The notes under the pieces: model-generated | Seen by the model: the letters and a program-made list of their open reading frames with translations, nothing else | Database searches by the model: none | What the model was told of the DNA's origin: nothing | Shown: in pieces, positions 6,518 to 43,381 of the stretch | Position numbering within the stretch: position 1 is the stretch's first letter | Layout: each line of letters begins with the position of its first letter | Program-made: the position numbers and the translations under genes | Assembly (NCBI GenBank): GCA_038210595.1 | Contig: JBBQWN010000005.1 | Location: 31,862-95,861, forward strand | From: Sphingomonadales bacterium | Lineage (GTDB): Bacteria; Pseudomonadota; Alphaproteobacteria; Sphingomonadales; Sphingomonadaceae | Direction of reading: 5' to 3' | Length of the DNA: 64,000 nucleotides

Positions 6518-6518
6518 G

Positions 6519-11727: not shown

Positions 11728-11739
11728 GCGTCGGACAGG

Positions 11740-14454: not shown

Positions 14455-14558
14455 GCGCGCAGGCTAGCAGCAGAACAGAGGCCGAACAACGGATCTGGAC
14501 CGGTAAAGGCTGCAGCCATGCGCCGCTGGCTACGACGGGCGCCAGCCTTGCCACCGCC

Positions 14559-16181: not shown

Positions 16182-16939
16182 TGATGCGTTCGATCGTGAT
16201 GGCGGTGCTGCTCGCGACCGCCGCCCCGGCGTTTGCCGACGCGGGAGCAAGTTTCAAGGCCGGCCAGTGGCAGCAGGCGGCAGCGCTCGGTCGTTCCGAA
16301 GGCACGGCCGCCTCGCTGATGCTGGCGGGCCGCGCGACCCTGGCGGTGGCCGGGGCCCAGGAACGCGACAAGACAGCCGCGAAGGCGGCGATCGCGTCCG
16401 CTATCGCCGACTTCGACAAGGCCATCGCCAAGGCCCCGAACAGCCTCGAGGCACGGACCGAGAAGGCGATCGCCATCGGCTACCGTGCCAAGATCGACAA
16501 GTCGCCGGGCGACGGCAAGGAGGCGCGCGACCAGATGATGGCGGTGCTGGCCAAGGATCCCAATTTCGCGCTCGCCAACGCCGCCCTCGGCGCGTGGCAC
16601 GGGGGTGCGGTGGCGACCATCGGCAACTTTCTCGCCTCGACCTTGCTCGGTGCCAATCGCAAGGACATGGACAAGTATCTGACGCTGGCGATGGCGCGGG
16701 AGCCACACGAGATCATCCATCCGGTGACCTATGCGTTCACGCTCCTCGACATCGGTGCCGATGGCGCACCGAAGGCCACGACACTGCTGCGCACCGCGGT
16801 CAAGCTGCCGGTCAAGGATGCCTATGACGGCGTCAACCACAAGGCCGCGGTCCAGGTGTTGGCGCTGCTCGAGGCGAAGGACATCAAGGGCGCTCGGGCG
16901 CTGGTGAAGAAGCTTGAGCCGTTTAACAATGTCGGTTGA
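16181..16939 (+). CDS. Exported Ala-rich helical protein, unknown function
   Basis: ATG at 16181 overlaps the lysK stop (TAATG). [21 protein letters not shown] is a signal peptide. The track ORF's upstream extension lies inside lysK. Confidence 0.6.
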   Translation: MMRSIVMAVLLATAAPAFADAGASFKAGQWQQAAALGRSEGTAASLMLAGRATLAVAGAQERDKTAAKAAIASAIADFDKAIAKAPNSLEARTEKAIAIGYRAKIDKSPGDGKEARDQMMAVLAKDPNFALANAALGAWHGGAVATIGNFLASTLLGANRKDMDKYLTLAMAREPHEIIHPVTYAFTLLDIGADGAPKATTLLRTAVKLPVKDAYDGVNHKAAVQVLALLEAKDIKGARALVKKLEPFNNVG

Positions 16940-17162: not shown

Positions 17163-17894
17163 ATGGCTACATCTAGTATCTTGGCGTCTATCGTCGTCGC
17201 CGTCCTTGCCGCGCCGGCCGCCGCGACCGTCCACGTCATCACCTTTTCGGGTACTGTCAGCGTAGGACTCGATCTGGCCGGCGCCTTCGGCACGCCGATA
17301 GCCTCTCTCACCGGCCGCCCTTACACAGCCAGCTACGCCTATGACCTGTCGCTGGGTACGCGAACCACCAGCACTGGGATCGCGGATGCCGTGACAGGTG
17401 GCGATCTGCTGGGCACCGTCTCGCCGATCATCGATGCATCACTTACCATCAATGGGATAACACATCACTTCGGCTCGCAGGACGGAATGGGTACGGCAAA
17501 ATACCTTCAGCTCGGTCTCGGTAGCCTCGGTGTCTATGGCGTCGCAGCGCGATCCGGCTCGCCGTATCTGGCCACCGTGGCCGTCATACCTGGCTTTACA
17601 CCCTCGCTCGACAATGACCTGGCGCTGCGGTCCGATGTCACGTGGAAGAGCGAATTCCTGATCGGCAGCGCAAATCCCTTGCAATTCGCCTTCGGCATTC
17701 TCGGCCCGGGACCGAACTCGGAGTTCTCCATTCAGACACTCGTGCCGGAACCTGCAAGCTGGACGATGATGATCGCCGGGTTCGGGCTGGTCGGTGTCGC
17801 CGCCCGACGAAACTCCCGATCACTTGCCTCAGCGACGCCGCGTCAGCCCTGGCGGCCAGCCAGGCTGGCCAGAGCGGGTGGCCGACCGCACTAG
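17163..17894 (+). CDS. PEPxxWA-CTERM sorting-domain protein (putative exosortase substrate)
   Basis: N-terminal signal peptide (MATSSILASIVVAVLAAPAAA). The C-terminal motif VPEPASWTMMIAGFGLVGVAARR is PEP, then a TM helix, then an Arg cluster. An unusual ~28-aa extension follows the Arg cluster. Confidence 0.75.
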   Translation: MATSSILASIVVAVLAAPAAATVHVITFSGTVSVGLDLAGAFGTPIASLTGRPYTASYAYDLSLGTRTTSTGIADAVTGGDLLGTVSPIIDASLTINGITHHFGSQDGMGTAKYLQLGLGSLGVYGVAARSGSPYLATVAVIPGFTPSLDNDLALRSDVTWKSEFLIGSANPLQFAFGILGPGPNSEFSIQTLVPEPASWTMMIAGFGLVGVAARRNSRSLASATPRQPWRPARLARAGGRPH

Positions 17895-21177: not shown

Positions 21178-22497
21178 TTGCCGCTGAAGCGCTCGCGCTT
21201 GTTCGCCTTTGCCGCACCCTACCTGCCGCTGTCTGCGGTCGGCCTGCCCGCTGTCGTCTATCTGCCGCCTTACTACGCCGCAGAACTCGGCCTGGGCCTG
21301 GAGGCGGTCGGGCTGATCTTTCTCGTTGTCAGGCTGATCGACATCCCGCTCGATCCGGTGCTCGGCCACTTAATTGATCGGACCAAAGGACGGCTCGGGC
21401 GCTTTCGACCGTGGCTGGCGGGCGGCGCGGCGCTGATGGCGGCAGGCGCGCTGGCGGTGTATTTCGCGGTACCCGGGATTTCGGCGGGTGCCGCGCTGGC
21501 CGGGCTGCTGGTTCTGTATTTCGGCTATTCGGCGATGATGGTGGCGCAGACCGCGTGGGGCGCGACGCTGTCCGACGACTATCATGAGCGCAGCCGGGTG
21601 TTCGGCTGGTGGATGGCCCTGACCCAGGTCGGCATGCTGCTGGTGCTGGCGCTGCCGCCGCTGCTACCGCGACTAATCCCGGGCGCGGGGATCGCGTCGG
21701 GCATTCACGGCATGGGTTGGCTGGTCATCGCTGGCGCGCCGCTTACCGCACTATTGTGCCTGTCGGTGCTGCCGGAGCGGGCGCGGACCGGCAACCACGC
21801 CAAGCTGGCTGACTTCGCGCGCGTCGTCGCCAACCCGCTGATGCGCCGCCTGCTGCTCGTTGACCTGCTCGCCAACCTGGCACCCGGGGTCACCGGCGCG
21901 CTGTTCCTGTTCTTTTTCCAGGCGGTGAAAGGATATTCGGCCGCTTCCGCGTCGGCGCTGCTGCTCGTCTACTTCGTCGCCGGTCTCGCGGGCGTGCCGC
22001 TGTGGACCCGGCTCGCGCGTGCCACGTCCAAGCATCGCGCGATCGTCGTCGCCCTGCTGTTCTATTGCGTGACGCAGAGCCTGACCGCGCTGCTGCCGCC
22101 CGGAAACTGGCCCGTGGCAGCGATCGGCATGGCGCTGGCCGGTGTGCCTTATGGTGCCACCGCGCTGTTGCTGCGCGCCATGCTCGCCGACCTGTCCGAT
22201 GCCGAGACGTTGGCGTCGGGCGGCGACAAGACCGCGCTGTTCTACGCCGCTGGGGTCGGCGTGCAGAAGCTGGGCTATGCAATCCCGGTCGGGGTGCTGT
22301 ACCCGGTGCTGAGTGCGCTCGGCTTTGTTGCGGTCAAGGGTGCAGGCAACAGTGCGGACGCGCTGAACGGTCTGACCCTGTTGTTCACCGCGCTGCCCGT
22401 GGTTCTGGCGCTTGCAGCCGCGTGGACCGTGCGTTCCTGGCCGATCGACGCAGCAGCGCAGTCGGCGACAGCGGCCGCGCTTCGCGGCAATGTTTGA
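21178..22497 (+). CDS. MFS transporter of the glycoside-pentoside-hexuronide (GPH/MelB-like) type, TTG start
   Basis: 439 aa and about 12 predicted TM segments. The N-terminal LIDIPLDPVLGHLIDRTKGRLGRFRPWL motif (D-x-x-G-x-x-x-D-R-T...GR.RPW) is characteristic of GPH symporters. GGAAGGGA lies upstream of the TTG. Confidence 0.8.
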   Translation: MPLKRSRLFAFAAPYLPLSAVGLPAVVYLPPYYAAELGLGLEAVGLIFLVVRLIDIPLDPVLGHLIDRTKGRLGRFRPWLAGGAALMAAGALAVYFAVPGISAGAALAGLLVLYFGYSAMMVAQTAWGATLSDDYHERSRVFGWWMALTQVGMLLVLALPPLLPRLIPGAGIASGIHGMGWLVIAGAPLTALLCLSVLPERARTGNHAKLADFARVVANPLMRRLLLVDLLANLAPGVTGALFLFFFQAVKGYSAASASALLLVYFVAGLAGVPLWTRLARATSKHRAIVVALLFYCVTQSLTALLPPGNWPVAAIGMALAGVPYGATALLLRAMLADLSDAETLASGGDKTALFYAAGVGVQKLGYAIPVGVLYPVLSALGFVAVKGAGNSADALNGLTLLFTALPVVLALAAAWTVRSWPIDAAAQSATAAALRGNV

Positions 22498-22506
22498 GTA
22501 ATTATG

Positions 22507-22532
22507 TTGCTATAAGGTCGCCCTTGTAGCAA
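22507..22532. promoter_or_regulatory. Near-perfect 26-bp palindrome TTGCTAtAAGGtcgcCCTTgTAGCAA between the transporter gene and pcs
   Basis: 11 of 13 positions pair by hand alignment. It sits 35 nt upstream of the pcs GTG. A second small palindrome, GGAAactgTTCC (22533-22544), follows. No U-tract. Confidence 0.4.
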
Positions 22533-22566: not shown

Positions 22567-25500
22567 GTGGCGCTTCTTGACGACGACCTCACGCTTCGTG
22601 GCCCGGCATCCGCGCCGGCTGTCAACCCGGTCCGCGACCGCTCGGCTTGGGAAGCAATGCGCGCCGCAGTGCTTGCCGATCCCGGCCGCTTCCACGGCGA
22701 CATTGCCGGCGAGACCATCCACTGGCTGATCGACGGCGCCTGGCTGAGCCGCGACGGCGCGACCTGGAAGGGCTGGGACGCCGCCACCGCCGCCCCGGTC
22801 AGCCGCGACCTGGGCGCCGATTTCGCGCCCTGGACCAAGGCCTTCGACAACAGCGACGCGCCGCACTACCGCTGGTTCGCGGGCGCGCAGACCAATGCCG
22901 CGTTCAACGAGGTCGACCGGCATGTGCTCGCCGGCCACGGTGCGGAAGCCGCGCTGATCTTCGAGGGCGACCGCTGGGACATGGCGGCGAACAAGGGCCG
23001 CGGCGGCCCGGTGGACGAGTTTCCCGTCTCCCGCCGCACCCTGCTGCTGGAGAGCGCCAAGTGCGCGCTGGCGCTCAAAGCTTTAGGCCTGAAGCAAGGC
23101 GACAGCATCGCGATCAACATGCCGTCGATCGTGCCCCAGATCTTCTGGACGGAAGGCGCCAAGCGCGCCGGCGTCATCTACACGCCGGTGTTCGGCGGGT
23201 TCAGCGACAAGACGCTGAGCGACCGTATTCATGACGCCGGCGCCAAGGTCGTCATCACCGCCGACGGCGGCTACCGCACAGCGCAGGTCGCAGCGTTCAA
23301 GACCGCCTACACCGACCCGGCGCTCGACAACTACATCCCGGTCGAGGTCGCGCTGCGCTTGATCGACGGCCTCGATTTGCCCGCCGAGCAGAAGGCGGCA
23401 ATCCTCGAGGCCGCGAAGGCAGCGCTGAAGGGCGAAGTCACAGTCGAGCGCTCCGACGTCATGCGCGGCGTCGGCCGCGCCCTGGCGACGCTGGGCCTCG
23501 ACGCGGCAGAATCGAGCCAGGTCCGCATCGCGGTCGCCAGCGCACTGGTCGATTCGCCACCGCGCGTCGATGCCGTCATCGTCGTGAAGCACACCGCGAC
23601 GCCCGACCTGGTGTGGCGCTCGCGCGACCGCTGGAGCCACGAGCTGACCGACGCCGCGGGCAAGGAGATCCTCGCCGCCGCCGGGCTGGCATCGGAAGCC
23701 GACCTGCTGGCGCTGCCCGACGAGGCGTTCGTCGCGGCGATCTGGAAAGCCTGCCCGCCGCTGCCGGTCGATGCCGAATTCCCGCTGTTCGTCATCTATA
23801 CCAGCGGCTCGACCGGCAAGCCCAAGGGCGTCGTCCACGTCCACGGCGGCTATATCGCCGGCATCGCCCACACGATGAAGGTCGCGTTCGACGCGCGCCC
23901 CGGCGACGTGCTGTACGTCGTCGCCGATCCCGGCTGGATCACCGGGCAGAGCTACCTGATCTCGGCGGCGCTGACGACACGCACGACGACGCTGATCACC
24001 GAAGGCTCGCCGGTGTTCCCGCACGCCGGGCGCTTCGCCGCCAGCATCGAGCGCCACGGCGTCACCATCTTCAAGGCCGGCGTCACCTTCCTGAAGTCGG
24101 TGATGAGCGACCCGCAGAACCTGCGCGACCTGCGTTCGTGGGACATGAGCTCGCTGCGCGTCGCGACCTTCTGCGCCGAGCCGACGTCGCCGCCGGTGCA
24201 GGCGTTCGGCATGGCCGAGATCACGCCCTGGTACATCAATTCCTACTGGGCGACCGAGCACGGCGGTATCGCCTGGACGCAGTTCTACGGCGCCGCCGAC
24301 TTCCCGCTGCGCCCCGACGCCCACACCTGGGCGCTGCCGTGGATCGTCGGCGAGGTCCGTATTCCGACCGACGACGCCCTGACCCACGCCAAGTGGCGCG
24401 AGGCGGCGCGCGGCGAGAAGGGCGAGATCGTCATCGCGCGCCCCTATCCCTATCTCGCGCGCACCGTCTGGGGCGATGCCGCCAATGTCGGCCAGCCGGG
24501 CTGGAAGGGTGACGCGGCGCGCTGGGAGGGCAGCTACTGGACCCGCTGGGACGGCGCGCCTGCCTATACCCAGGGCGACTTCGCCGTGCAGCACGAGGAC
24601 GATTCGTTCAGCCTCCACGGCCGCAGCGACGACGTCATCAATGTCAGCGGCCACCGCATGGGCACCGAGGAGATCGAGGGCGCGATCCTGCGCGACCGGG
24701 CACTCGACCCCAACTCGCCGGTCGGCAACGTGCTCGTCGTCGGCGCGCCCGACGCGACCAAGGGCCTGACCCCGCTCGCCTTCGTCGTTGCCTCGCCGGG
24801 CCGCAAGATCACGCAAGCCGACCGCAACCGCCTGACCGAACTGGTGCGCAGCGAGAAGGGGCCGACCGCCGTCCCCGCCGATTATCTGGAGGTCAAGGCG
24901 TTCCCCGAGACGCGTTCGGGCAAATACGTTCGCCGCATGGTCCGCGCCCTGGTCGAGGGCGGCGACCTGGGCGACACCTCGACCCTGCGCAATCCCGAGA
25001 GCCTCGACGACCTGCGCGAGGTGATCACCACCTGGCAGCGCCGCCAGCACCTGAGCGAGACGCAGCAACTGTTCGAGCGCTACCGCTACTTCCGCATCCA
25101 GTACAACACTGTCGCGCCCGGCAAGAAGGTGGCGACGGTCACCATCACCAACCCGCCGGTCAATGCGCTGAACGAGCGCGCGCTCGACGAGCTCAACATC
25201 GTCGTCGATCACCTGTCGCACCGCGACGACGTGGTCGCGGTCGTGTTCACCGGCGAAGGCACCGCGAGCTTCGTCGCGGGTGCCGATATCCGCCAGTTCC
25301 TCGACGAGATTCACGACGAGGACGAGGCGCGCGTCCTGCCCAACAACGCCCAGCTGGCGTTCAACAAGATCGAGGCGATGGACAAGCCCTGCATCGCCGC
25401 CATCCAGGGCGTCGCGCTGGGCGGCGGCATGGAGTTCGCGCTCGCCTGCCATTACCGCATCGCGGAGCCACACGCCCGCTTCGGGCAGCCGGAGATCAGG

Positions 25501-27879
25501 TTGCGGCTGATCCCGGGGTATGGGGGAACGCAACGGTTGCCGCGATTGCTGGCGGCGCATGGCGGGCAGCAGGGACTGTCCACGGCGCTCGAGATGATCC
25601 TGGGCGGGCGCAGCGTCGATGCCGAATTCGCTCTAAATGCCGGGTTGATCGACGAGGTCGTCGACGGCAGCGAGGACGCGCTGAGCCGCGCGCATGCCTT
25701 GGTCCGTGAAATCGTCGGTGGCCGCGAAATTCGCCGCGCCGCCAGCGAGCCGAGCGCCGACCTCGACGCGGCGCTCGCCGACCCGTTCATCGAGAGCATC
25801 GTCAGCCAGCTCCAATGGGCGGGCCGCGCAGATGCCGGCCGCCGCGCCATCGATGCGATCCGCACCGGCTGGACGCAGGGCATCGCGGCAGGCCTGGCGC
25901 GCGAGGCCGACCATTTCGCGGCCGCGGTCGTCCACCCGCAGGGCGGCAAGACCGGCATCCGCCAGTTCATCGACAAGACGAGCCCGGCGCTGCCGGTGCG
26001 GAGCGCGGACGCGGACACCACCGCGCCGCTGCCGGTCGGCGCACCGTTCTTCCCGGGCATCACGCCGCTGCCGACACGCCAGCATGGCTTCGGCATTGCC
26101 CGCGATCCGGCCACCGGGCAGCCGGGTTTCGGCCCGCCGGGTACGCACGAGAAGGAGCTGATCGTCCCGGTCGACGAGCCTGCCGCCAACGACGCGCTCG
26201 TCTACATGCTGACCTCGGAGGTCAATTTCAACGACATCTGGGCGCTGACCGGCATTCCGGTGTCGCCGTTCGACGGGCACGAGAACGACTATCAGACCAC
26301 CGGGTCCGGCGGTGTCGGGCTGGTCGCGGCGCTGGGCTCCGAGGCGCGGGCCGAGGGGCGGTTGAAGGTCGGCGACCTGGTCGCGGTCTATTCGGGGACC
26401 AACGACCTGCTCAGTCCGCAGGTCGGGCGCGACCCGATGTTCGCGGACTTCGCCATCCAGGGTTACGAGACCGAGACCGGCAGCCATGCGCAGTTCCTCG
26501 TCACCCAGGCGCCGCAGCTCCACCACGTCCCGGCCGACCTGACGCTGGAGGCGGCGGGGAGCTATATCCTCAACCTCGGCACCGTCGTCCGCGCGCTGTT
26601 CACGACGCTGGAGATCGAGCCCGGCAAGCGGCTGTTCGTCGAGGGCTCCGCTACCGGCACCGGCCACGACGCGCTGAAGACCAGCATCCGCACCGGGCTG
26701 CACGTGACCGGCCTCGTCTCGTCGCCGAGCCGCGCGGCGTTCGTGAAGGAGGTCGGCGCGGTCGGCGCACTCGACCGGACCGATCCGCGCTTCAAGGCGG
26801 CGTTCACCGCCGTGCCCGAGGACCCGGCAAAGTGGGCGGCATGGGAGGCGGCGGGCCAGCCTTTGCTCGACGAGTATCGCGCCATCAACGACGGGCAGTT
26901 GGCGGACTATGCCGTCAGCCATGCCGGCGAGACGGCCTTCCCGCGCACCTTCCAGCTGCTCGGCGAGGGCGGCATCCTGGCCTTCTACGGCGCGTCGTCG
27001 GGCTATCACTTCACCTATGTCGGCAAGCCGGGTGCCAGCGACCCGACGACGATGCTGCGCCGGGCCAAGCTGCGCGGCGGCGAGGCGGTGCTGCTGTTCT
27101 ATGGCCCGTGCAGCCGCGAACTGGCCGATCCGACCGGCCTCGAGATGATCGAGGCGGCGCGTGCCGCCAAGGCCCGCACCGTCGTCGTCACCACCACCGA
27201 CGGCCAGCGCGAGTTCCTGCAGTCGCTGGGCTTCGAGGATGCCATCGCCGGCATCGTCAGCCTGGAGGATTTAAAGCGCCGCCAGGGCGACCAGTTCGAA
27301 TGGCCCGACGCGATGCCGCGCCTGACGCCGGCGCGCGACGACATCGAGACCTTCCGCAGCGAAGTGCGGGACTATCAGGAAAAGACGCTGAAGCCCTTCG
27401 GCGCGGCGGTCGGGCGGCTGTTGCGCTCCCCCGACAATCCGCGCGGGTCGCCCGACCTGATCATCGAGCGTGCCGGCCAGGATACGCTCGGGGCGTCGAC
27501 GGCGCTGGTCAAGCCGTTCACCGGGCGGGTCGTGTACTCCGAGGACTGCGCCGGGCGGCGCTACTCCTTCTACGCGCCGCAGGTGTGGACGCGGCAGCGG
27601 CGCATCCTGATGCCGACCGCCGAGATCCGCGGCACCCACCTGTGCAACGCCTACGAGGTGACGCGCATGAACGACATGATCGCGGCCGGCCTGCTCGACG
27701 TGACGCCGCCGACGGTGGTGCCGTGGGAGGGCCTGCCCGAGGCGCACCAGTCGATGTGGGAAAACCGCCATTCGGGCGCGACCTATGTCGTCAACCACGC
27801 GCTGCCGGCGTTGGGGCTGCGCAGCAAGGACGCGCTGCTTGAAGCCTGGGCGGCGCAAGAGGCGGAGTCAGCCAAGTGA
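22567..27879 (+). CDS. pcs: Trifunctional propionyl-CoA synthase (3-hydroxypropionyl-CoA synthetase / dehydratase / acrylyl-CoA reductase fusion)
   Basis: 1770 aa. GTG start with AGGA 7 nt upstream. The N-terminus is collinear with my recollection of Chloroflexus aurantiacus Pcs (NP.RDR..WEA.RAA.LADPG.FHG.IA...IHW; APxYRWF.G..TNA.FNEVDRHV; YTPVFGGFSDKTLSDRIH.AGA.VVIT). Ligase motifs are YTSGSTGKPKG and ETRSGKYVRR (about aa 1-840). Crotonase motifs are FVAGADI and GGGMEFALACH (about aa 840-1040). An MDR/crotonyl-CoA-reductase-like domain has VEGSATGTG (about aa 1190-1770). Confidence 0.95.
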   Translation: MALLDDDLTLRGPASAPAVNPVRDRSAWEAMRAAVLADPGRFHGDIAGETIHWLIDGAWLSRDGATWKGWDAATAAPVSRDLGADFAPWTKAFDNSDAPHYRWFAGAQTNAAFNEVDRHVLAGHGAEAALIFEGDRWDMAANKGRGGPVDEFPVSRRTLLLESAKCALALKALGLKQGDSIAINMPSIVPQIFWTEGAKRAGVIYTPVFGGFSDKTLSDRIHDAGAKVVITADGGYRTAQVAAFKTAYTDPALDNYIPVEVALRLIDGLDLPAEQKAAILEAAKAALKGEVTVERSDVMRGVGRALATLGLDAAESSQVRIAVASALVDSPPRVDAVIVVKHTATPDLVWRSRDRWSHELTDAAGKEILAAAGLASEADLLALPDEAFVAAIWKACPPLPVDAEFPLFVIYTSGSTGKPKGVVHVHGGYIAGIAHTMKVAFDARPGDVLYVVADPGWITGQSYLISAALTTRTTTLITEGSPVFPHAGRFAASIERHGVTIFKAGVTFLKSVMSDPQNLRDLRSWDMSSLRVATFCAEPTSPPVQAFGMAEITPWYINSYWATEHGGIAWTQFYGAADFPLRPDAHTWALPWIVGEVRIPTDDALTHAKWREAARGEKGEIVIARPYPYLARTVWGDAANVGQPGWKGDAARWEGSYWTRWDGAPAYTQGDFAVQHEDDSFSLHGRSDDVINVSGHRMGTEEIEGAILRDRALDPNSPVGNVLVVGAPDATKGLTPLAFVVASPGRKITQADRNRLTELVRSEKGPTAVPADYLEVKAFPETRSGKYVRRMVRALVEGGDLGDTSTLRNPESLDDLREVITTWQRRQHLSETQQLFERYRYFRIQYNTVAPGKKVATVTITNPPVNALNERALDELNIVVDHLSHRDDVVAVVFTGEGTASFVAGADIRQFLDEIHDEDEARVLPNNAQLAFNKIEAMDKPCIAAIQGVALGGGMEFALACHYRIAEPHARFGQPEIRLRLIPGYGGTQRLPRLLAAHGGQQGLSTALEMILGGRSVDAEFALNAGLIDEVVDGSEDALSRAHALVREIVGGREIRRAASEPSADLDAALADPFIESIVSQLQWAGRADAGRRAIDAIRTGWTQGIAAGLAREADHFAAAVVHPQGGKTGIRQFIDKTSPALPVRSADADTTAPLPVGAPFFPGITPLPTRQHGFGIARDPATGQPGFGPPGTHEKELIVPVDEPAANDALVYMLTSEVNFNDIWALTGIPVSPFDGHENDYQTTGSGGVGLVAALGSEARAEGRLKVGDLVAVYSGTNDLLSPQVGRDPMFADFAIQGYETETGSHAQFLVTQAPQLHHVPADLTLEAAGSYILNLGTVVRALFTTLEIEPGKRLFVEGSATGTGHDALKTSIRTGLHVTGLVSSPSRAAFVKEVGAVGALDRTDPRFKAAFTAVPEDPAKWAAWEAAGQPLLDEYRAINDGQLADYAVSHAGETAFPRTFQLLGEGGILAFYGASSGYHFTYVGKPGASDPTTMLRRAKLRGGEAVLLFYGPCSRELADPTGLEMIEAARAAKARTVVVTTTDGQREFLQSLGFEDAIAGIVSLEDLKRRQGDQFEWPDAMPRLTPARDDIETFRSEVRDYQEKTLKPFGAAVGRLLRSPDNPRGSPDLIIERAGQDTLGASTALVKPFTGRVVYSEDCAGRRYSFYAPQVWTRQRRILMPTAEIRGTHLCNAYEVTRMNDMIAAGLLDVTPPTVVPWEGLPEAHQSMWENRHSGATYVVNHALPALGLRSKDALLEAWAAQEAESAK

Positions 27880-30800
27880 ACGCACCGATCGTCGAGCCGC
27901 TGGTCGGCACCTCCGGGCGGCTCGCCGGCAAGATTGCGCTGGTCACCGGCGCGGCCGGCAACCTCGGCGGCGAGATCGTCCGCCACTACCTGCGCGAGGG
28001 CGCGACGGTGGTGATGACCGGGCGCACCCCGGCGCGCACCGATGCGGCGCGCGAGGCTGTTCTGGCAGAGACAGGTGCCGATCCGGCGCGGGTCTCGACC
28101 GTCGTGCTCGACGGCGCGGACGCCGCATCGGTCCGCGCCGGCATCGCCGCGGTTGTGGAGCGCCACGGTCGCATCGACATCCTCGTCAACAATGCGGGAT
28201 CGGCGGGGCCGAAGGCGCCGCTGGAGCGCGTGCCGCTGACCGCCGACGAACTGGCGAACGGCGATACCGAGACGGTCAGCGCGGCGGCGCGCAGCCTGCT
28301 TGGCGTCGCCTGGAATCTGGTCCGCGCGGCGGCGGACGCGATGCCGCCGGGCGGGTCGATCGTCAACGTCTCGACCATCTTCAGCCGCACCCAATATTAT
28401 GCGCGCACGGCCTATGTCGTGCCCAAGGCGGCAATGAATGCGCTGTCGAAGACACTGGCGCGCGAGCTGGGCTCCCGCGGCATCCGGGTCAACACGCTGT
28501 TCCCCGGCCCGATCGAGAGCGACCGCATCCGCACCGTCTTCGCGGCGATGGACAAGTTGCAGGGCAAGCCGGCGAACGCCACCGCCGACCATTTCACCGG
28601 CATCATGGCGTTGGCCCGTGGTGCGGCGGCAGCGGATGCCAAGCCGCTGCCGACGCCGACCGATATCGCCGCCACCTGCGTGTTTCTCGGTTCCGACGAG
28701 AGCGCCGCCTTCACCGGCCACGATTTCGAGGTCACGCACGGCATGGATGTGCCGAAGGAATCGCGTTCGACCTATCTGTCGCGGCCGACGATGCGCTCCA
28801 TCGATGGCGCGGGCCTCGGCATTGTCGTGGCCGGCGGCGACAGCCTTGCGGACGCGCTGGAGATTGCGCGAGTGCAGGCAAACTGCGGGGCGGCGGTCTT
28901 GCTCGGCTTCGGCAGCGACGCCGCGGTCGCGATGGTGCAGCGCCGCCTCGATGCCGAGCCCGCGACCGGCGCACTGACGCTGGCGCGCTTCGACCGTAGC
29001 GATCCGGCCCAGATGGAGGCGGCGCTCGAAGCCTTTGGAGCTGAGATCACCGGCGCGATCATCTTGCCCGAGTTTGGCAACGACTTCTTCAACGGGCCGC
29101 TGCACGCGGCGTCGGACGAACAGGTCGACAGCTTCATCGACGCCGAGCTGACCGGCGCCGTCGCCGTCGCGCGGTCGCTGACGCGCTACTGGAAGCGCCA
29201 CGACGCGCTGGTCCACGAGCCGCGCTTCGTGTTCGTCGGCGGGCCGTCGGACGGCGGCGACAACGGTTGGAACGGCCTGCTCGCGGCTGCCTGCGAGCAG
29301 CTGGTGCGGGTCTGGCGCGACGAGAGCCAGGTCGATGTCGCAGCCGGCAAGCGGCGGCAGGCGGAGTGGGGCAACCAGATCGTCCGCACCGACAACCACG
29401 AGCCGGAGAATGTCCGCTTCACCGCCGGCCAGTGCGCGCGCATCCTGCTGAAGGAGCGCAAGGTCCAGCCGATCAGCCTGTACCTGCCCGAATCGATCGG
29501 CGAGGCGACCGGCGCGCGCGTCGCCATGGTCGGGTTCGCCGAGAACATCACCGGGCTGCATCTCGGAAAGGTCGCGCTTATCACCGGCGGCTCGGCCGGC
29601 ATCGGCGGTCAGGTCGCGCGGCTGCTGGCGCTGGCGGGTGCCAAGGTCATGCTCGTTGCACGCCGCGAGAGCGAACTGGCGACAATGCGCGCGCGTATCG
29701 TCGGCGAGCTCGAGGACGTCGGCTTCTCCGGCGTCGAGCGGCGCGTCCGCACGCTGTCGGGCATCGACGTCAGCGACCACGCGGCGCTCAACAAGGCGGT
29801 CGACGAGACCATCGCCGCGTTCGGGCGCATCGACTATCTGATCAACAATGCCGGCATCTCCGGCGCCGAGGAGATGGTCGTCGACATGGACGTCGCCGCC
29901 TGGCGGCGGACGCTGGATGCGAATTTGATCTCCAACTACGTCCTCGCGCATGCCGTGGTGCCAAGGATGAAGGCGCAGGGTTCCGGCTACATCCTCAACG
30001 TCAGCAGCTATTTCGGAGGCGAGAAGCACCTTGCCGTCGCCTACCCCAACCGCGCCGACTATGCGGTCAGCAAGGCTGGACAGCGGGCGATGGCGGAGGC
30101 GTTCGCGCGGTCGCTGGGTCCGGAAATTCAGATCAACGCCATTGCGCCGGGCCCGGTCGACGGCGACCGCCTGTCGGGCAAAGACGGCAAGGCCGGACTG
30201 TTCGACCGCCGCGGCCGGCTGATTCTGGAAAACAAGCGGCTAAATGCCGTCCACTCGGCGGTCATCCGCGCCGTCCGGGGCGGCGCGGCGATAGACACCG
30301 TACTCGGTCGCCTGGCGCGCAACGACTCGGTCCGCATCGCCCATGACCGTGACAATCCGCGTGAGCTTCGCGATCTGGCGCTATCCTGTGCGCAGGAAGG
30401 CGACGAAACCTGCAGTTGGGACCGTTTCATCCTGACCCGCGAGATCGCCGCGCGGCTTGTCCGCCGCCTGCGGCTGGGCGGCTACCTGACCGCGTCGCCG
30501 GCCTGGGCCACACGTCCCTCTACGGACGAAGCCGATGGCAGCTGGCTGCTGCGCGTACCGCTCGACGACAAGCCCTGGCTGCCGCCGGCGCGGATCGCGG
30601 CCGAGGCGGCCAAGGTCGGTGGCGGCGTCACCTCGCTGCTCAACCTCGGCCGCATGCCGACCGAGGGCGAGGTTGCGCAGGCGACGGTGTTCTTCCTCGC
30701 CGACCGCGCCGTCAGCGGCGAATGCTTCATGCCGTCGGGCGGCCTGAGCCTCGAACGCTCGACCGTCGAGCGCGAACTGTTCGGCAGCCCCAAGGCCGAG

Positions 30801-31514
30801 CGGCTGGAGCAGATGGCGGGCAAGACCGTGTGGATTATCGGGGAGCACCTCGTCGATTATCTGGCGGGCTGCGCCCAGGCCTTTGCCGACCTAGCGGTGG
30901 CGCGCGTCGTGTTCATCACGCGAACAGATGAAGGGGCGGAGACGCTGACCGCCACCGTTGCCGGCGCTCCGCTCGAATGCGTGACGGCCGGCGATGACCT
31001 GGAGGGGGCGCTGGATCGTGCCCTTGCGCAATGGGGACCACCGACGACCATCGTTTCGTCGCCGTTCACGCCGCTGCCCGACCGCCTGTTCGGCGACGAA
31101 AGCCTGAGTCCGGCCGCGTTTGCGACTCTGTGCGAGGACAATCTGACTCATCACTTCCGGGTCAGCCGCAAGGCCTCGCTCTACGACCATTGCCAGCTGG
31201 TACTGGTCACCCCCGATGTCGAGATCGGGCGCACCGGCCCGGCGTTCGCACTGGCCAACTTCATCAAGACCTCGCTTCACGCCTTCACCGCGACGCTGGC
31301 GGTCGAGAACGAGCGGCTGATCCACGATGTGCCTGTCAATCAGATCAACCTGACCCGGCGCGTTCGCAGCGAGGAACCCCGCAACCGTGACGAACATGAG
31401 GAGGAGGTTCGCCGGTTCGCCCGCGCCGTGTTGCTGGCCGGCGCGCCGCTGCCCGACGCGGAGGACTCGCGTTACCGCGCCCGCATCTATCGCGGCATGT
31501 CGATGACCGTCTAA
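27876..31514 (+). CDS. mcr: Bifunctional malonyl-CoA reductase (malonyl-CoA -> malonate semialdehyde -> 3-hydroxypropionate), four SDR-type domains
   Basis: 1212 aa. GTGA overlap with pcs. Long stretches are near-identical to the Chloroflexus Mcr sequence as I recall it: GRLAGKIAL.TG.AGN.G; NVSTIFSR..YY.R..YV.PKAA.NALS; RGIRVNT.FPGPIESDRIRTVF; GLHLGKVALITGGSAGIGGQ; GSGYILNVSSYFGGEK; YPNRADYAVSKAGQRAMAE; GPEIQINAIAPGPV.GDRL; FALANFIKT.LHAFTAT. TGxxGxxG and YxxxK motifs are present in both halves. Confidence 0.95.
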   Translation: MNAPIVEPLVGTSGRLAGKIALVTGAAGNLGGEIVRHYLREGATVVMTGRTPARTDAAREAVLAETGADPARVSTVVLDGADAASVRAGIAAVVERHGRIDILVNNAGSAGPKAPLERVPLTADELANGDTETVSAAARSLLGVAWNLVRAAADAMPPGGSIVNVSTIFSRTQYYARTAYVVPKAAMNALSKTLARELGSRGIRVNTLFPGPIESDRIRTVFAAMDKLQGKPANATADHFTGIMALARGAAAADAKPLPTPTDIAATCVFLGSDESAAFTGHDFEVTHGMDVPKESRSTYLSRPTMRSIDGAGLGIVVAGGDSLADALEIARVQANCGAAVLLGFGSDAAVAMVQRRLDAEPATGALTLARFDRSDPAQMEAALEAFGAEITGAIILPEFGNDFFNGPLHAASDEQVDSFIDAELTGAVAVARSLTRYWKRHDALVHEPRFVFVGGPSDGGDNGWNGLLAAACEQLVRVWRDESQVDVAAGKRRQAEWGNQIVRTDNHEPENVRFTAGQCARILLKERKVQPISLYLPESIGEATGARVAMVGFAENITGLHLGKVALITGGSAGIGGQVARLLALAGAKVMLVARRESELATMRARIVGELEDVGFSGVERRVRTLSGIDVSDHAALNKAVDETIAAFGRIDYLINNAGISGAEEMVVDMDVAAWRRTLDANLISNYVLAHAVVPRMKAQGSGYILNVSSYFGGEKHLAVAYPNRADYAVSKAGQRAMAEAFARSLGPEIQINAIAPGPVDGDRLSGKDGKAGLFDRRGRLILENKRLNAVHSAVIRAVRGGAAIDTVLGRLARNDSVRIAHDRDNPRELRDLALSCAQEGDETCSWDRFILTREIAARLVRRLRLGGYLTASPAWATRPSTDEADGSWLLRVPLDDKPWLPPARIAAEAAKVGGGVTSLLNLGRMPTEGEVAQATVFFLADRAVSGECFMPSGGLSLERSTVERELFGSPKAERLEQMAGKTVWIIGEHLVDYLAGCAQAFADLAVARVVFITRTDEGAETLTATVAGAPLECVTAGDDLEGALDRALAQWGPPTTIVSSPFTPLPDRLFGDESLSPAAFATLCEDNLTHHFRVSRKASLYDHCQLVLVTPDVEIGRTGPAFALANFIKTSLHAFTATLAVENERLIHDVPVNQINLTRRVRSEEPRNRDEHEEEVRRFARAVLLAGAPLPDAEDSRYRARIYRGMSMTV

Positions 31515-31524
31515 AGAGGCGGCC

Positions 31525-32469
31525 ATGAACGATTGGCTGGATTTCGAGAAACCCGTGGCGGCACTCGCCGACAGCGCGGCAGCGCTGCGTACGGCGGGGA
31601 CGCCCGAAGCGCTGGCGGAGGCCCCGCGGCTCGAGGAACGGGCGAAGCGGTTGCTGGCCGACCTCTACGGTCGCCTCACCCCGGCCCAGCGAATGCAGGT
31701 GGCGCGCCACCCGGCGCGGCCGCACTTCAAGGATTATGTCGCCGCACTGATCGAAGATTTCGTGCCGCTGGCGGGCGACCGTGGGTTCGGCGAGGATGCG
31801 GCGATCGTCGGTGGCATCGGTCGATTGCAGGGGCGCAGCGTTGTCGTGATCGGCCACGAGAAAGGCAACGACACCGCCAGCCGGGTAAAGCACAACTTCG
31901 GCATGGGCCGGCCGGAGGGCTATCGGAAGGCGACACGCCTAATGCAGCTGGCTGGCCAGTTCGCGCTTCCCGTCGTTACTTTCGTCGATACGCCCGGCGC
32001 CTATCCGGGCTTGGAAGGCGAAGCGCGCGGACAGGCGGAGGCGATCGCCCGCGCCACCCAAGCCTGCCTTGAGCTGCCAGTACCAATGGTTGCGGCGATC
32101 GTCGGCGAGGGCATGTCGGGCGGCGCGATCGGGCTGGCCGCCGCCAACAAGCTGCTGATGTTCGAGCATGCCGTCTATGCGGTCATCTCGCCCGAGGGCT
32201 GCGCCTCTATCCTGTGGCGCGGCGAGGCCGGCAGGGCGGCGGACGCCGCCGCCGCGATGAAGATCACCGCGGCCGACCTGCTCCGCCTCGGCATCATCGA
32301 CCGGATCGTCTACGAGCCCCCCGGCGGAGCGCACCGCGATCCGGCAACCGCGATGGCGCGGCTGGGTAGTGCGATCGGCGAAGAGCTTGGCAGTCTCGCC
32401 GGGCTGGACGCCGCGGCGCTGAGAAAGCAACGCCGCGACAAGTTCATCGCAATGGGCCGCAACCTGTAG
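31525..32469 (+). CDS. accA: Acetyl-CoA carboxylase carboxyltransferase alpha subunit
   Basis: 314 aa. MNDWLDFEKPVAAL...ARHPARPHFKDYV...RPEGYRKA.RLM.LA..F.LPVVTFVDTPGAYPG..GEARGQAEAIA. It starts 10 nt after the mcr stop, with AGAGG as a Shine-Dalgarno-like element. Confidence 0.95.
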   Translation: MNDWLDFEKPVAALADSAAALRTAGTPEALAEAPRLEERAKRLLADLYGRLTPAQRMQVARHPARPHFKDYVAALIEDFVPLAGDRGFGEDAAIVGGIGRLQGRSVVVIGHEKGNDTASRVKHNFGMGRPEGYRKATRLMQLAGQFALPVVTFVDTPGAYPGLEGEARGQAEAIARATQACLELPVPMVAAIVGEGMSGGAIGLAAANKLLMFEHAVYAVISPEGCASILWRGEAGRAADAAAAMKITAADLLRLGIIDRIVYEPPGGAHRDPATAMARLGSAIGEELGSLAGLDAAALRKQRRDKFIAMGRNL

Positions 32470-32514: not shown

Positions 32515-32988
32515 TCAGGCGGTCTTGCTGACGCGCGGCTTGCGCGGCTTCGGCGCGTCGCCGTTCGCGGCCGGCACCCGCGGCTTGCGGCCGAGGCCGA
32601 GCCGCTTGGCGACTTCGCGCCGGGCGTCCGAATAACCCGGCGCAACCATCGGATAGGTCGCCGGAAGATTGTAGCGCGAGCGATACTCTTCCGGAGTCAT
32701 GCCGTGGCCGGTCAGGTGGCGCTTCAAGCTCTTGTACGGCTTGCCGTCGATCAGCGAGAGAATGAAATCGCGGTTGGCGAGCGACTTACGCGCGGTAACC
32801 GCCGGCTGATGCGTCTCGGCGCTGCCACCGACGGTTTCGGTGCCGGGGCCCGACAGGCCGCTCAGCGCGGCATGAGTCGAGGCGATCAACGCCGGCAGAT
32901 CATCGACGCGGACATTGTTGTTCGCGACGAACGCCGAGAGCAGCTCGACTGTCAGTTCAGTGAGATCCTGTTGCTGTGTAGTATCCAT
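32515..32988 (-). CDS. mucR: MucR/Ros family zinc-finger transcriptional regulator
   Basis: MDTTQQQDLTELTVELLSAFVANNNV...SLIDGKPYKSLKRHLTGHGMTPEEYRSRYNLPATYPMVAPGYS is the diagnostic Ros/MucR domain. The start was taken at the internal ATG (complement of 32986-32988). Confidence 0.9.
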   Translation of the reverse strand: MDTTQQQDLTELTVELLSAFVANNNVRVDDLPALIASTHAALSGLSGPGTETVGGSAETHQPAVTARKSLANRDFILSLIDGKPYKSLKRHLTGHGMTPEEYRSRYNLPATYPMVAPGYSDARREVAKRLGLGRKPRVPAANGDAPKPRKPRVSKTA

Positions 32989-33158
32989 GGATTGACCCTT
33001 AACCATAAGAATGCCCCGCCGCGCGCGTCGAGAACGAGGCGACTTACACTCTGCTTTACGGAACCGGTCAAGATTCAAATGAAGCGGGCTTGATTGTCGC
33101 CGCCTAACATGCCGCCAGACCGATCATTCAGACTTGCCAGATCACGACAATCTGGTCA

Positions 33159-38158: not shown

Positions 38159-39141
38159 CCGAGCGTACCGCCATCCTCCACCGCACCGGCGGCCCCGAGG
38201 TGATCGAGTGGACGGACGTGACGCTGCCGCCGCCCGCCGCGGGCGAGGTGCGCATGCGGAATACCGCGGTCGGCCTCAACTTCATCGACACCTACCACCG
38301 CACCGGGCTTTATCCCGGACCGCTGCCGTCGGGCCTCGGGCTGGAGGCGGCGGGCATCGTCGAGGCGCTCGGGGCGGACGTCACCGGGCTTACCGCCGGC
38401 GACCGTGTGGGGACGTTCGGCCCGGCGCGCGGTGCCTATGCGACGGCGCGCAATCTGTCGGCCGCGTCCTTGCTGAAGCTGCCGGACGATATCGACGACG
38501 ACACCGCCGCCGCCGTGCTGTTGAAGGGCTGCACCGCAGAGTTCCTGGCCGAGCGCGCCGGCCGGGTGCAGCCGGGCATGACGGTGCTGGTCCATGCCGC
38601 GGCCGGCGGAGTCGGCCTGATCCTGACGCAGTGGCTGGCCGCCATCGGCGCGACCGTGATCGGTACCGTCGGTGACGCGGCGAAGGCAGCGCTGGCGACA
38701 AGCACGGGCGCCGCGCACGTCATCGAGTACCGGCACGAGGACGTGGCCGAACGGGTCCGCGCGCTGACCGGCGGCAAGGGCGCATCGGTGGTGTTCGACG
38801 GCATCGGGATGGTGACATGGGCGGCATCGCTCGATGCGACCGCGCGGCGCGGGCTGATTATCGGCTACGGCAACGCCGATGCGCCCGTCGCGGGCGTCAA
38901 CCTCGGCATCCTCGCCAGCAAGGGCTCGCTGTTCGCGACGCGGCCGACGCTGTTCGACTATTATGCGACGCCCGAGGAGCGCGCCGCCGGCACCGAACGC
39001 CTGTGGACGATGCTCCGCACCGGCAAGGTCAAGGTCACCATCGGCCAGCGTTACCAGCTGGAGGACGCGGCCCAGGCGCACGCCGACCTCGAAGCCCGCC
39101 GGACGACGGGGTCGACGATCCTGACGGTTCAGCGCGGGTAG
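38155..39141 (+). CDS. qor: NADPH:quinone oxidoreductase (zeta-crystallin-type MDR)
   Basis: ATGA overlap with the M61 gene. [43 protein letters not shown] and AAGGVG are classic Qor motifs. Confidence 0.9.
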
Positions 39142-40199
39142 GCGCGCACTGTCGTCGGGACCAGCGTGAGGGCATCGCCGGGCGCGAGGCTGTCGGGCGC
39201 ATCGGCGAGCGTCGCTTCGATCAGCTGCCCGCCGTCACCGACGCATTCAAGGCTGGCGCGGGCGCCGGTGTGGGCGAGGCGGCGGAGCGTGACCGGCAGG
39301 CCCTCGCCGGGCGTGCCGAGCCGGAATTCGTGCGGGCGGACGAACGCCTGGGCCGGGCCGTCGCCGGCGGCGGGCGCAGTGTTGGGCAGGCGCAGGCCGC
39401 CGAGTTCGACCGCGCCGCCCGCCAGCCGCGCGTCGAAACGGTTGGCGTTGCCGATGAAGCTGCAGACGAAGGCGGTGGCGGGGCGGTTGTAGACCGCGTC
39501 GGGCGTATCGACCTGTTCGATACGGCCGGCGTTCATCACCACCACCCGGTCGGCGAGATCGAGCGCCTCCTCCTGATCATGCGTGACGAAGATCGAGGTG
39601 ACATGGCTGGCGTCGTGGACGCCGCGCAGCCAGCGGCGCAAGTCCTGCCGCACCTTGGCGTCCAAGGCGCCGAACGGCTCGTCGAGGAGCAGCACACGCG
39701 GGTCGACCGCCAGCGCGCGGGCGAGCGCCACCCGCTGCCGCTGCCCGCCCGACAGTTGCGCCGGATAGCGCCTGCCGAGATCGGGCAGCTGTACGAGCGC
39801 CAGCAGCTCCGCAACCCGCGCCGCGATCGTCGCCTTGTCCGGGCGGTCGCGGCGGCGCTTGACGCTCAGACCGAAGGCGATGTTGTCGGCGACGGTCATG
39901 TGCCGGAACAGCGCATAATGCTGGAAGACAAAGCCGATGCCGCGTTCGCGCGCCGGCCGCTCGCTCATGTCGGTGCCGTCAAAGCGCACCGTGCCGGCAT
40001 CGGGAAAGTCGAGGCCGGCGATGATCCGCAACAGCGTCGTCTTGCCCGACCCGCTGGGGCCGAGCAGCGCCAGGAACTCGCCCGGCTCGACGACCAGGTC
40101 GACGCCCTCGAGTGCGGTGAAGCCGCCGAAGCGGCGGACCAGATGTTCGACCGTGACCGTCAATGCTTCGCCCCCGTCAGCTGGTCGGCATAACGCCAT
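39129..40199 (-). CDS. cysA: Sulfate/thiosulfate ABC transporter ATP-binding protein
   Basis: Walker [10 protein letters not shown], signature [15 protein letters not shown], Walker B LLLDEPF, and a CysA-type C-terminal regulatory domain. The likely true start is TTG at 40163, overlapping the cysW stop (TTGA). The track ATG at 40199 would overlap cysW by 40 nt. Confidence 0.92.
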
Positions 40200-41029
40200 T
40201 CCAGCAGCGTCTTCGCGACCAGCGTCACCAGCGCCAGGCCCGCGAGCAGCGAGGCAACCGCGAACGAGGCGACGAAGTTATACTCATTGTAGAGGATCTC
40301 GACATGCAGCGGCATGGTGTTGGTCAGGCCGCGGATATGGCCCGATACCACCGACACCGCGCCGAACTCGCCCATCGCCCGGGCGTTGCAGAGCAGCACG
40401 CCGTAGAGCAGGCCCCAGCGGATGTTGGGCAGGGTGACGCGGGCGAAGGTCTGCCAGCCACTGGCACCGAGCGACAGCGCTGCCTCCTCATCGTCCTTAC
40501 CCTGTTCCTGCATCAGCGGGATGAGTTCGCGGGCAACGAACGGGAAGGTTATGAATATAGTCGCTAAAACGATACCCGGAACGGCGAAGATGATCTGGAC
40601 ATCGTGGTCGCGGAGCCAGGGGCCGAACCAGCCCTGCAGGCCGAAGAGCAGCACGTAGATCAGGCCGGCGACCACCGGGGACACCGAAAAGGGCAGGTCT
40701 ATCAACGAGATAAGCAGGGCGCGGCCGCGGAAATCGAACTTGGCCACGGCCCAGGACGCGGCCACCCCGATGACGATGTTGAGCGGCACCGCGATGAGCG
40801 CGACGAGCAGCGTCAGACGCACCGCGGCGAGCGCGTCGGGGTCGGTGATCGCGGCCCGGTAAGCCTCCCAGCCCTTGGCGAAGGCCTCGACGAACACCAC
40901 CACCAGCGGCAGCGCGAGGTTGAGCAGCAGGAACGCCAGCGCCACCGTGACCAGCACCCACTTGGTCACCGGCGACGGTGCGGTCGGGTCGCGGCGCGGG
41001 GTCATGCGGTGCGCCGCGCCCGGTCCCAC
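40160..41029 (-). CDS. cysW: Sulfate ABC transporter permease CysW
   Basis: 289 aa, multi-TM, with an EAA-type loop ([25 protein letters not shown]). Confidence 0.9.
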
Positions 41030-41844
41030 GCCTGCAGCGCGTTGATCGCCAGCAGGATCGCGAACGAGGCGGTCAGCATGGTCGCCGCAATCGCCGTCGC
41101 CCCGGCATAATTATACTGCTCCAGCTGCGCGACGATCAGCAGCGGCGCGATCTCGGACCGGAACGGCAGGTTGCCGGCGATGAAGATGACGCTGCCGTAC
41201 TCCCCGACGCCGCGCGCGAACGCCAGCGCCGCGCCGGTGGTCAGCGCCGGCAGCACCGCGGGCAGCACGACACGCACGAAGGTCTGCAGCCGCGACGCGC
41301 CCAGCGAGGCGGCGGCCTCCTCGACATCATGCCCGAGGTCGGCGAGCACCGGCTCGACCGTCCGCACCACGAACGGCAGGCCGATGAAGGTCAGCGCGAC
41401 GACGACGCCGAGCGGCGTGAACGCGACCTTCACCCCCAATGGCTCCAGCCACGAGCCGATCACCCCGTTCGAGGCATAGACGGTGGTCAGCGCGATGCCC
41501 GCAACGCTGGTGGGCAGCGCGAACGGCAGGTCGACGAGCGCGCCGACGATGCGCTTGCCGGGAAATTCGGTCCGCACCAGGACCCACGCGACCAGCAGCC
41601 CGAACACCGCGTTGATCACCGCGGCCGCCGCCGCCGCCCCGAAGCTGAGCCGGTAGGCGGCGAGCGCCCGCCTGGAGAACGCCACCTCGGCAAACGCCTC
41701 CCACCCCATGCCGGCGGAGCGGATGAACACCGTCGACAGCGGCACCAGCACGATCAGCGTCAGCGCGAACACGGTGATGCCAAAGCTCAGCCCGAAACCG
41801 GGCATGATCGTGTGGCGCACGCCAAGGATACTGGACCGGCTCAA
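41002..41844 (-). CDS. cysT: Sulfate ABC transporter permease CysT
   Basis: ILGVRHTIMPGFGLSFGITVFALTLIVLVPL matches the CysT N-terminus. EAA loop EEAAASLGASRLQTFVRVVLP is present. The start is uncertain: TTG at 41844 or ATG at 41805. The track ORF's longer N-terminus overlaps the porin gene. Confidence 0.88.
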   Translation of the reverse strand: MSRSSILGVRHTIMPGFGLSFGITVFALTLIVLVPLSTVFIRSAGMGWEAFAEVAFSRRALAAYRLSFGAAAAAAVINAVFGLLVAWVLVRTEFPGKRIVGALVDLPFALPTSVAGIALTTVYASNGVIGSWLEPLGVKVAFTPLGVVVALTFIGLPFVVRTVEPVLADLGHDVEEAAASLGASRLQTFVRVVLPAVLPALTTGAALAFARGVGEYGSVIFIAGNLPFRSEIAPLLIVAQLEQYNYAGATAIAATMLTASFAILLAINALQAWDRARRTA

Positions 41845-41879
41845 GCGCCCTGTCTGGCGGGTTGCGACATTTCCCGCAA

Positions 41880-43343: not shown

Positions 43344-43381
43344 CGTGGGATCCCCCCTGGCTTGGCGATGTGGTCGAAAGC

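Follow-up and report, generated by a model that had tools for sequence, protein, structure and literature searches.

Bifunctional malonyl-CoA reductases (Mcr) built from short-chain dehydrogenase/reductase (SDR) modules are described from both Chloroflexi and Proteobacteria. The enzymes of Chloroflexus aurantiacus (PDB 8HJW) and Roseiflexus castenholzii (8HI4) serve the autotrophic 3-hydroxypropionate (3-HP) bi-cycle, and in C. aurantiacus mcr (Caur_2614) is unlinked to the propionyl-CoA synthase gene pcs (Caur_0613; PMC3150298), as the first-pass annotation of the DNA described below had noted. In Erythrobacter sp. NAP1, Porphyrobacter sp. ULC335 and other Proteobacteria, by contrast, the two genes form a pcs-mcr module that is often accompanied by accA. 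Zarzycki et al. in 2009 and Zarzycki and Fuchs in 2011 are reported to have been the first to describe mcr/pcs in Erythrobacter NAP1 and in the NOR5 gammaproteobacteria. The Porphyrobacter ULC335 preprint notes a frequent association of AccA with Pcs and Mcr and describes the bi-cycle of such bacteria, as that of Erythrobacter NAP1, as incomplete and presumably allowing co-assimilation of CO2; surveys find bi-cycle marker genes to be widespread in Alpha- and Gammaproteobacteria. We describe here a pcs-mcr-accA unit from a Sphingomonadales bacterium, located in a stretch of 64,000 nucleotides (contig JBBQWN010000005.1, positions 31,862 to 95,861), referred to throughout as the window and used for all coordinates. 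The unit very probably encodes a functional bifunctional Mcr within a compact operon, tied to Pcs by a start-stop overlap and supplying the first part of the 3-HP bi-cycle, where we infer activity, co-transcription, coupling and role from the sequence.

The solved enzyme nearest to this locus is that of Porphyrobacter dokdonensis (PdMCR; PDB 6K8S-6K8W), which belongs to the same protein family and the same order, Sphingomonadales, gives the strongest PDB matches per residue and has all catalytic and CoA-binding residues in common with the window Mcr. It comes from another family-level lineage, the nearest named relative of the window being a Sphingosinicellaceae bacterium. A further malonyl-CoA reductase operates in the archaeal 3-HP/4-hydroxybutyrate cycle. 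This enzyme is monofunctional, catalyses the first of the two reductions, belongs to an unrelated fold family and is not regarded as a homologue of the SDR-based Mcr; KEGG lists it as a separate orthologue (K15017).

Identity and architecture of the window Mcr

The open reading frame (ORF) at 27876..31514 on the forward strand starts with GTG and encodes 1212 amino acids. Its assignment as a genuine bifunctional NADPH-dependent malonyl-CoA reductase / malonate-semialdehyde reductase (EC 1.2.1.75 and 1.1.1.298; K14468) is firmly supported by homology. In a phmmer search of the window Mcr against all PDB sequences, R. castenholzii MCR scored 1140 bits (E = 0; query 12-1212 against residues 3-1229) and C. 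aurantiacus MCR 1131 bits (E = 0; query 13-1212 against residues 4-1219), while the two halves of PdMCR scored 1065 bits (6K8S, C-terminal half) and 693 bits (6K8V, N-terminal half). Ordinary SDRs remained below 100 bits in the same search. The pairwise comparison with Chloroflexus Mcr is therefore an end-to-end match that goes beyond generic SDR similarity.

The first-pass annotation had proposed long blocks that match the Chloroflexus enzyme nearly residue for residue. Three of its four motif blocks are indeed letter-identical in C. aurantiacus MCR, namely GLHLGKVALITGGSAGIGGQ (aa 560), GSGYILNVSSYFGGEK (aa 702) and YPNRADYAVSKAGQRAMAE (aa 723), and the segments FALANFIKT (aa 1124) and LHAFTAT (aa 1134) are letter-identical in Porphyrobacter MCR. 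Overall identity to the Chloroflexi enzymes is nevertheless moderate, at 52-70% by region, and near-identity is confined to motif blocks. Computed against the fragments of sequence that the PDB search returned, the values for Chloroflexus are 55% across the N-terminal 300 aa and 70% across the 234-aa SDR3 core, and the value for Roseiflexus is 52% across the C-terminal 320 aa; PdMCR reaches 72% over its C-terminal 316 aa.

The window Mcr is of the same length class as the C. aurantiacus and R. castenholzii enzymes and has identical catalytic motifs, and the full-length alignment predicts for it their collinear layout of four SDR modules and an extra domain. Residues of importance have been established for RfxMCR by structure and mutagenesis (PMC10470521), and these were mapped onto the window Mcr through gap-free alignment blocks, or by alignment position count in the case of R1147. 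SDR1 (aa 1-293, 27876..28754), the catalytic malonate-semialdehyde reductase domain, carries the triad T167, Y180 and K184 (T165, Y178 and K182 in RfxMCR), Y174 and R177 of the YxxRxxY motif that binds the semialdehyde (Y172 and R175), and the NADPH contacts R50 and D79 (R41 and D70). SDR2 (aa 294-552, 28755..29531), with boundaries transferred from RfxMCR (PMC10470521), is predicted to be a non-catalytic pseudo-SDR. The catalytic malonyl-CoA reductase domain SDR3 consists of a core (aa 553-762, 29532..30161) and a further piece (aa 927-956, 30654-30743); it holds the triad S711, Y729 and K733 (S731, Y749 and K753), the malonyl-binding residues Y723 and R726 (Y743 and R746) and the NADPH contacts S573, R596 and D631 (S593, R616 and D651). 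Inserted in SDR3 is the extra domain (aa 763-926, 30162..30653), which provides R765, L775 and R779 for CoA/malonyl binding (R785, L795 and R799). The predicted non-catalytic SDR4 (aa 957-1212, 30744..31511) contributes R1147 (R1164) to the malonyl-CoA site. All of the mapped catalytic, malonyl-CoA-binding and NADPH-binding residues are thus kept, and none of them varies across an alignment with 11 homologues that are 68-91% identical. The view that the protein contains four SDR-like modules rests on full-length homology to the solved structures, in particular the cryo-EM structure of RfxMCR. From the sequence alone, two modules are strong SDRs in Pfam (aa 25-290 and aa 565-764), SDR2 gives a weak sub-threshold SDR signal (E 5e-4, 20 bits) and SDR4 has no SDR match; the extra domain matches no Pfam family.

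Neither Pfam nor NCBIfam holds an Mcr-specific model, and both return generic SDR matches only. This weighs against the assignment to the extent that the family placement has to rest on pairwise and structure-linked homology. It is also the ground for considering the protein a generic tandem SDR fusion acting on a substrate other than malonyl-CoA, since the Pfam and NCBIfam matches are of generic SDR/FabG type and NCBI calls the relatives 'SDR family oxidoreductase'. This alternative is barely credible given that the end-to-end match extends over the non-SDR extra domain and SDR4, that the malonyl-CoA-binding residues are conserved without exception, and that linkage to pcs is obligate. Homologues of the window Mcr number more than 1000, and JGI names them malonyl-CoA reductase/3-HP dehydrogenase. 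The naming differs between resources: NCBIfam and Pfam are without a model for bifunctional Mcr or for Pcs, JGI and KEGG use malonyl-CoA reductase, and homologues P0015, P0023, P0034, P0043 and P0124 carry the NCBI label 'SDR family oxidoreductase' and nothing more. Surveys relying on such labels will miss Mcr proteins of this kind.

The pcs-mcr junction and the probable operon

Directly upstream of mcr on the same strand lies pcs (22567..27879, 1770 aa), encoding a trifunctional propionyl-CoA synthase with acyl-CoA ligase, enoyl-CoA hydratase and enoyl-CoA reductase domains. Pfam recognises AMP-binding, ECH_1 and ADH_zinc_N domains in the protein, and phmmer aligns it at full length with the propionyl-CoA synthase of Erythrobacter sp. 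NAP1 (6EQO; 2629 bits, query 22-1768). The pcs frame ends in GCC AAG TGA, with the mcr GTG at 27876-27878 having its three bases in common with pcs and the pcs TGA at 27877-27879, giving the 4-nt overlap GTGA (27876..27879). A Shine-Dalgarno-like (SD) site for mcr, GGAG, is located within the final pcs codons at 27864..27867, 8 nt before the GTG. The mcr frame is closed upstream by a stop at 27840-27842, and between this stop and the Rossmann motif KIALVTGAAGNLG (TGAAGNLG) there is no alternative ATG, GTG or TTG, so 27876 is the only canonical mcr start. Reading of both frames therefore bears out the 1212-aa ORF with a GTG overlapping the pcs stop that was first annotated. In this sequence of 68-70% GC, the mcr and pcs ORFs show codon-position GC typical of real genes, with third-position GC (GC3) of 0.86 and 0.91. 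The pcs-mcr-accA unit as a whole (GC3 0.83-0.91) resembles the neighbouring genes, and no compositional difference of the mcr and pcs ORFs from their neighbours was seen.

The order of the two genes was compared across relatives, using 80 loci from a metagenome contig scan with a 41-aa Mcr-specific peptide block and three other loci, analysed by tblastn. A genome-contig scan seeded on the generic SDR motif IDILVNNA returned nearly only unrelated SDR genes, with locus L001 as the sole true Mcr. The gene directly preceding mcr, on the same strand, is pcs in each of the 63 loci that combine an Mcr at least 60% identical to that of the window with upstream sequence; these 63 include some near-duplicates. 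In L163-L167, too, pcs is located upstream of mcr. Downstream, most members of the 67-90% identity group have accA directly after mcr; L081 and the 61-65% group lack it in this position. Five loci (L102, L156, L158, L159 and L162) encode an Mcr that is about 49% identical to that of the window and 55-62% identical to the Chloroflexus/Roseiflexus N-terminal fragments, with neither pcs nor accA within 7-10 kb of mcr, and appear to represent a Chloroflexi-like clade with unlinked genes. Given the 63 of 63 loci, the Porphyrobacter ULC335 preprint and the surveys, pcs-mcr(-accA) is a known and widespread arrangement of proteobacterial carriers and no special feature of the window. Relative to Chloroflexi, the adjacency of the two genes may be derived, as the first-pass annotation proposed, or ancestral. 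The closest homologues (85-91% identity) are metagenome proteins, one member of the homologue cluster being annotated 'SDR family oxidoreductase [Sphingosinicellaceae bacterium]', and relatives at about 70% identity belong to Sphingomonas, Sandaracinobacter and Thermaurantiacus. Among the loci compared, the genes flanking the unit in the window are fully common only to L083; L165 also has an amidohydrolase gene upstream, and farther relatives keep the core pcs-mcr pair in varying gene contexts.

Within the window's own clade, the 4-nt overlap is kept in L083 (90% identity), L165 (91%) and L081 (85%), and probably in L163. In the form ATGA it is found again in Sandaracinobacter (L001) and in the entire 61-63% identity group. 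Of the 13 distinct overlapping junctions, which represent several lineages, 11 have a GGAG, GAGG or AGGA at -11 to -14; GGAG at 7-8 nt spacing is kept in L083 and L081, and the 85-91% relatives all conserve the junction AAGTGAACGC. Overlap and SD persist although the C-terminal pcs codons around them differ and contain indels, a pattern that offers comparative support for an initiation site apparently placed for termination-reinitiation. Other relatives have overlaps of 1 nt or 8 nt, or spacers of 1-170 nt. In L163 (positions 2-1455, 88% identity) two overlapping ORFs, 2-1330 and 1327-1455, are predicted over the 3' end of pcs, where a frameshift or assembly error may be present; the called mcr start precedes its probable overlapping start at 1452 by 16 codons.

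Stop-start overlaps commonly support re-initiation, and translational coupling of mcr to pcs is probable in the window. Ribosomes ending pcs could re-initiate on mcr or keep its start site open, and the placement of the mcr SD inside the last pcs codons, together with the overlap, would tie Mcr synthesis to Pcs synthesis. A fixed stoichiometry of Pcs and Mcr, as the first-pass annotation proposed, is a hypothesis. There are, however, points that pull the other way. RNA folding of the window junction finds no structure beyond that of shuffled sequence (z = +0.88), which leaves the mcr SD and start in an unstructured stretch where independent mcr initiation is possible, and the overlap in itself is no proof of coupling or of a fixed ratio. 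The existence of relatives with 1-170-nt spacers also means that the overlap is dispensable for the module. It may be, then, that the overlap reflects genome compaction only, with mcr initiated independently at its own accessible SD and the Pcs:Mcr ratio not fixed. The accessible start region, a good GGAG at optimal spacing and the many relatives that function with spacers all fit this alternative. We consider it a real if doubtful possibility in view of the conservation of overlap and SD in several lineages despite variable pcs C-terminal codons, and favour coupling of mcr to pcs. A coupling mechanism that depends on RNA structure at the junction was considered and dropped, the fold being no better than chance.

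The last gene of the unit is accA (31525..32469, forward strand), encoding the carboxyltransferase alpha subunit of acetyl-CoA carboxylase (Pfam ACCA 2.5e-124). It scores above the NCBIfam equivalog cut-offs for both NF004344 (423.8 bits, cut-off 357) and TIGR00513 (355.9 bits, cut-off 319.3), and its SD AGAGG (31515..31519) occupies the 10-nt gap that follows mcr. A consensus scan found no sigma-70-like promoter or terminator-like site at the pcs-mcr and mcr-accA junctions. From this arrangement we infer a compact, co-transcribed pcs-mcr-accA operon with mcr as its middle cistron. The 10-nt distance from mcr leaves accA no room for a promoter of its own. If the genome has no other accA, expression of this essential fatty-acid-synthesis gene would depend on the operon itself or on a promoter within mcr. 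In L165 (91% identity; 11677-16137) mcr and accA are separated by an insertion of three genes, comprising a PhdYeFM/PIN toxin-antitoxin pair, a biotinyl-carboxyltransferase fusion gene and a GDSL lipase gene.

Upstream of pcs, on the same strand and separated from it by a 69-nt spacer, is a gene for an MFS_2 / GPH-family transporter (21178..22497; Pfam MFS_2 1.9e-68, NCBIfam GPH match below cut-off), which may be the first gene of the unit and is kept upstream of pcs only in the relative L083. The spacer contains an imperfect palindrome, TTGCTATAAGG-N4-CCTTGTAGCAA (22507..22532), located 35 nt ahead of the pcs GTG. L083 has the same arms around a different centre, and the palindrome is a possible operator or hairpin controlling pcs-mcr-accA. 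On the other side of the unit, convergent with it on the reverse strand, lies a gene for a Ros/MucR-family transcriptional regulator (32515..33078; Pfam ROS_MUCR 1.4e-40), which is found in the same position only in L083.

Probable pathway role

In enzymes of the RfxMCR type, SDR3 acts together with the extra domain and SDR4, followed by SDR1, and two NADPH are consumed (PMC10470521). By this scheme, the C-terminal half of the window Mcr (SDR3, extra domain and SDR4) would reduce malonyl-CoA to malonate semialdehyde with NADPH, and the N-terminal half (SDR1 and SDR2) would reduce malonate semialdehyde to 3-HP with a second NADPH. Acetyl-CoA carboxylase would supply the malonyl-CoA and Pcs would turn 3-HP into propionyl-CoA. 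The unit together with acetyl-CoA carboxylase would then carry acetyl-CoA and HCO3- through malonyl-CoA and 3-HP to propionyl-CoA, which is the first part of the 3-HP bi-cycle. The role proposed for such a partial route in Proteobacteria is mixotrophic co-assimilation or the disposal of reductant, and not autotrophy.

The wider content of the window limits the reading of the pathway context in two respects: none of the other bi-cycle genes (mcl, mch, mct, meh, smt, pcc) is present in the 64 kb, and neither are photosynthesis genes. The first of these absences bears on the idea that the unit belongs to a complete autotrophic 3-HP bi-cycle. Surveys that report bi-cycle markers in Alpha- and Gammaproteobacteria and in Gemmatimonadota raise this possibility, yet Erythrobacter NAP1 and Porphyrobacter ULC335 are described with an incomplete pathway, and with the remaining genes missing from the window a complete cycle is improbable.

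The opposite direction of flux is less probable still. The enzyme might be mainly oxidative, converting 3-HP, for instance from the breakdown of acrylate or dimethylsulfoniopropionate, to malonyl-CoA, with the cluster acting as a 3-HP catabolic device. An MFS transporter gene does precede the operon, and Pcs alone already consumes 3-HP. Set against this, R50 and R596 specify NADPH binding and so favour reduction in vivo, accA as the source of malonyl-CoA is co-located, and the characterised homologues act reductively (PMC10470521), all of which makes an oxidative role very improbable. The neighbouring accA and the cofactor sites of NADPH type thus favour a reductive, carbon-assimilating direction over 3-HP catabolism, and it is reasonable to propose, with the first-pass annotation, that the presence of Mcr would make the cluster more than a device for scavenging 3-HP.

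The window adds another, as yet uncharacterised Sphingomonadales lineage that carries the first half of the 3-HP bi-cycle as a compact operon. The conserved Mcr/Pcs pair could be mined for 3-HP biotechnology, although the practical value is modest. Comparison of junction types across relatives leads to concrete, testable regulatory hypotheses.

The sister-clade spacer and the remainder of the window

The junction of the proteobacterial module is lineage-dependent, with a 4-nt overlap in the window as against a conserved spacer of about 105 nt in a large clade. In 31 loci with an Mcr about 67% identical to that of the window, pcs and mcr are separated by this spacer, exemplified by the conserved intergenic element at L114:7739-7855 and found in the same position in L111, L115, L125, L127-L139, L141, L142, L144-L154 and L157. 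Its core, TTGAAACGTTC-N5-TCTCCTCCCC (core form -N5-TYTCCTCCCC), occurs exactly once per locus and nowhere else in those loci. The core is followed by a covarying hairpin and then by the 3' end GAGGAGAG-N5-8-ATG, which contains the mcr SD. An upstream segment, CUCUCCUC, is complementary to GAGGAGAG, with 95.5% of cells paired and no compensatory changes in this pairing, and the minimum-energy fold pairs the two segments in four of five representatives. In the inner hairpin, 5 of 7 pairs are changed on both sides. RNAalifold missed this variable hairpin owing to the alignment register, and a hand-drawn structure was tested instead. No Rfam family matches the spacer. The roughly 85-nt mcr leader of the sister clade is thus a possible cis-regulatory RNA that would sequester the SD.

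The sister clade also carries candidate stress promoters. The alphaproteobacterial general-stress sigma-factor (EcfG-type) motif is GGAAC-N17-20-GTT in S. melonis (PMC6599016), and it was searched for here as GGAAC-N16/17-CGTT. Matches straddle the pcs stop in 19 sister-clade loci (for example L114:7723-7748), the others having CATT at -10. About 29 loci also have a match at a distance of 150-200 nt upstream of pcs (for example L114:2094-2118), where the motif forms a conserved island amid variable sequence. Neither the spacer motifs nor the EcfG-type motif is present in the window or in its closest relatives. The distribution of the motif suggests stress-sigma control of pcs and mcr in the sister clade, in which mcr probably has its own stress-responsive promoter as well as a regulated leader.

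A more tentative and, on balance, unlikely extension is that there are two regulatory designs put to different physiological uses, one in the window clade with mcr slaved to pcs by the overlap, and one in the sister clade with an EcfG-type motif ahead of each of the two genes and an SD-sequestering leader. If this were true, the window clade would make the route from acetyl-CoA to propionyl-CoA as one stoichiometric unit, sphingomonads would use CO2-co-assimilating 3-HP chemistry in response to stress or reductant, and the sister-clade leader would be an undescribed cis-regulatory RNA.

The remainder of the window is ordinary chromosome, including a suf operon, lysS, rho, maf-aroE-coaE-dnaQ, a sulfate ABC transporter and other genes, with no mobile elements in the 64 kb. 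The suf Fe-S assembly operon (sufB, sufC, sufD, sufS and an A-type carrier; 4219-10357) has an Rrf2-family regulator ahead of it. A second Rrf2 regulator (44496-44936) adjoins the sulfate-type ABC transporter cluster (39129-44374), inside which lies a gene of the phosphate-selective-porin family. An ORF of 299 aa at 16040-16939 has gene-like codon-position GC (GC3 0.81) and no Pfam match; the start predicted for it lies within the class-I lysyl-tRNA synthetase gene, giving an overlap of about 140 nt with the end of that gene, which makes a later true start probable. Finally, a small protein with a PEP-CTERM sorting motif is encoded at 17163-17894, which implies an exosortase system somewhere in the genome.

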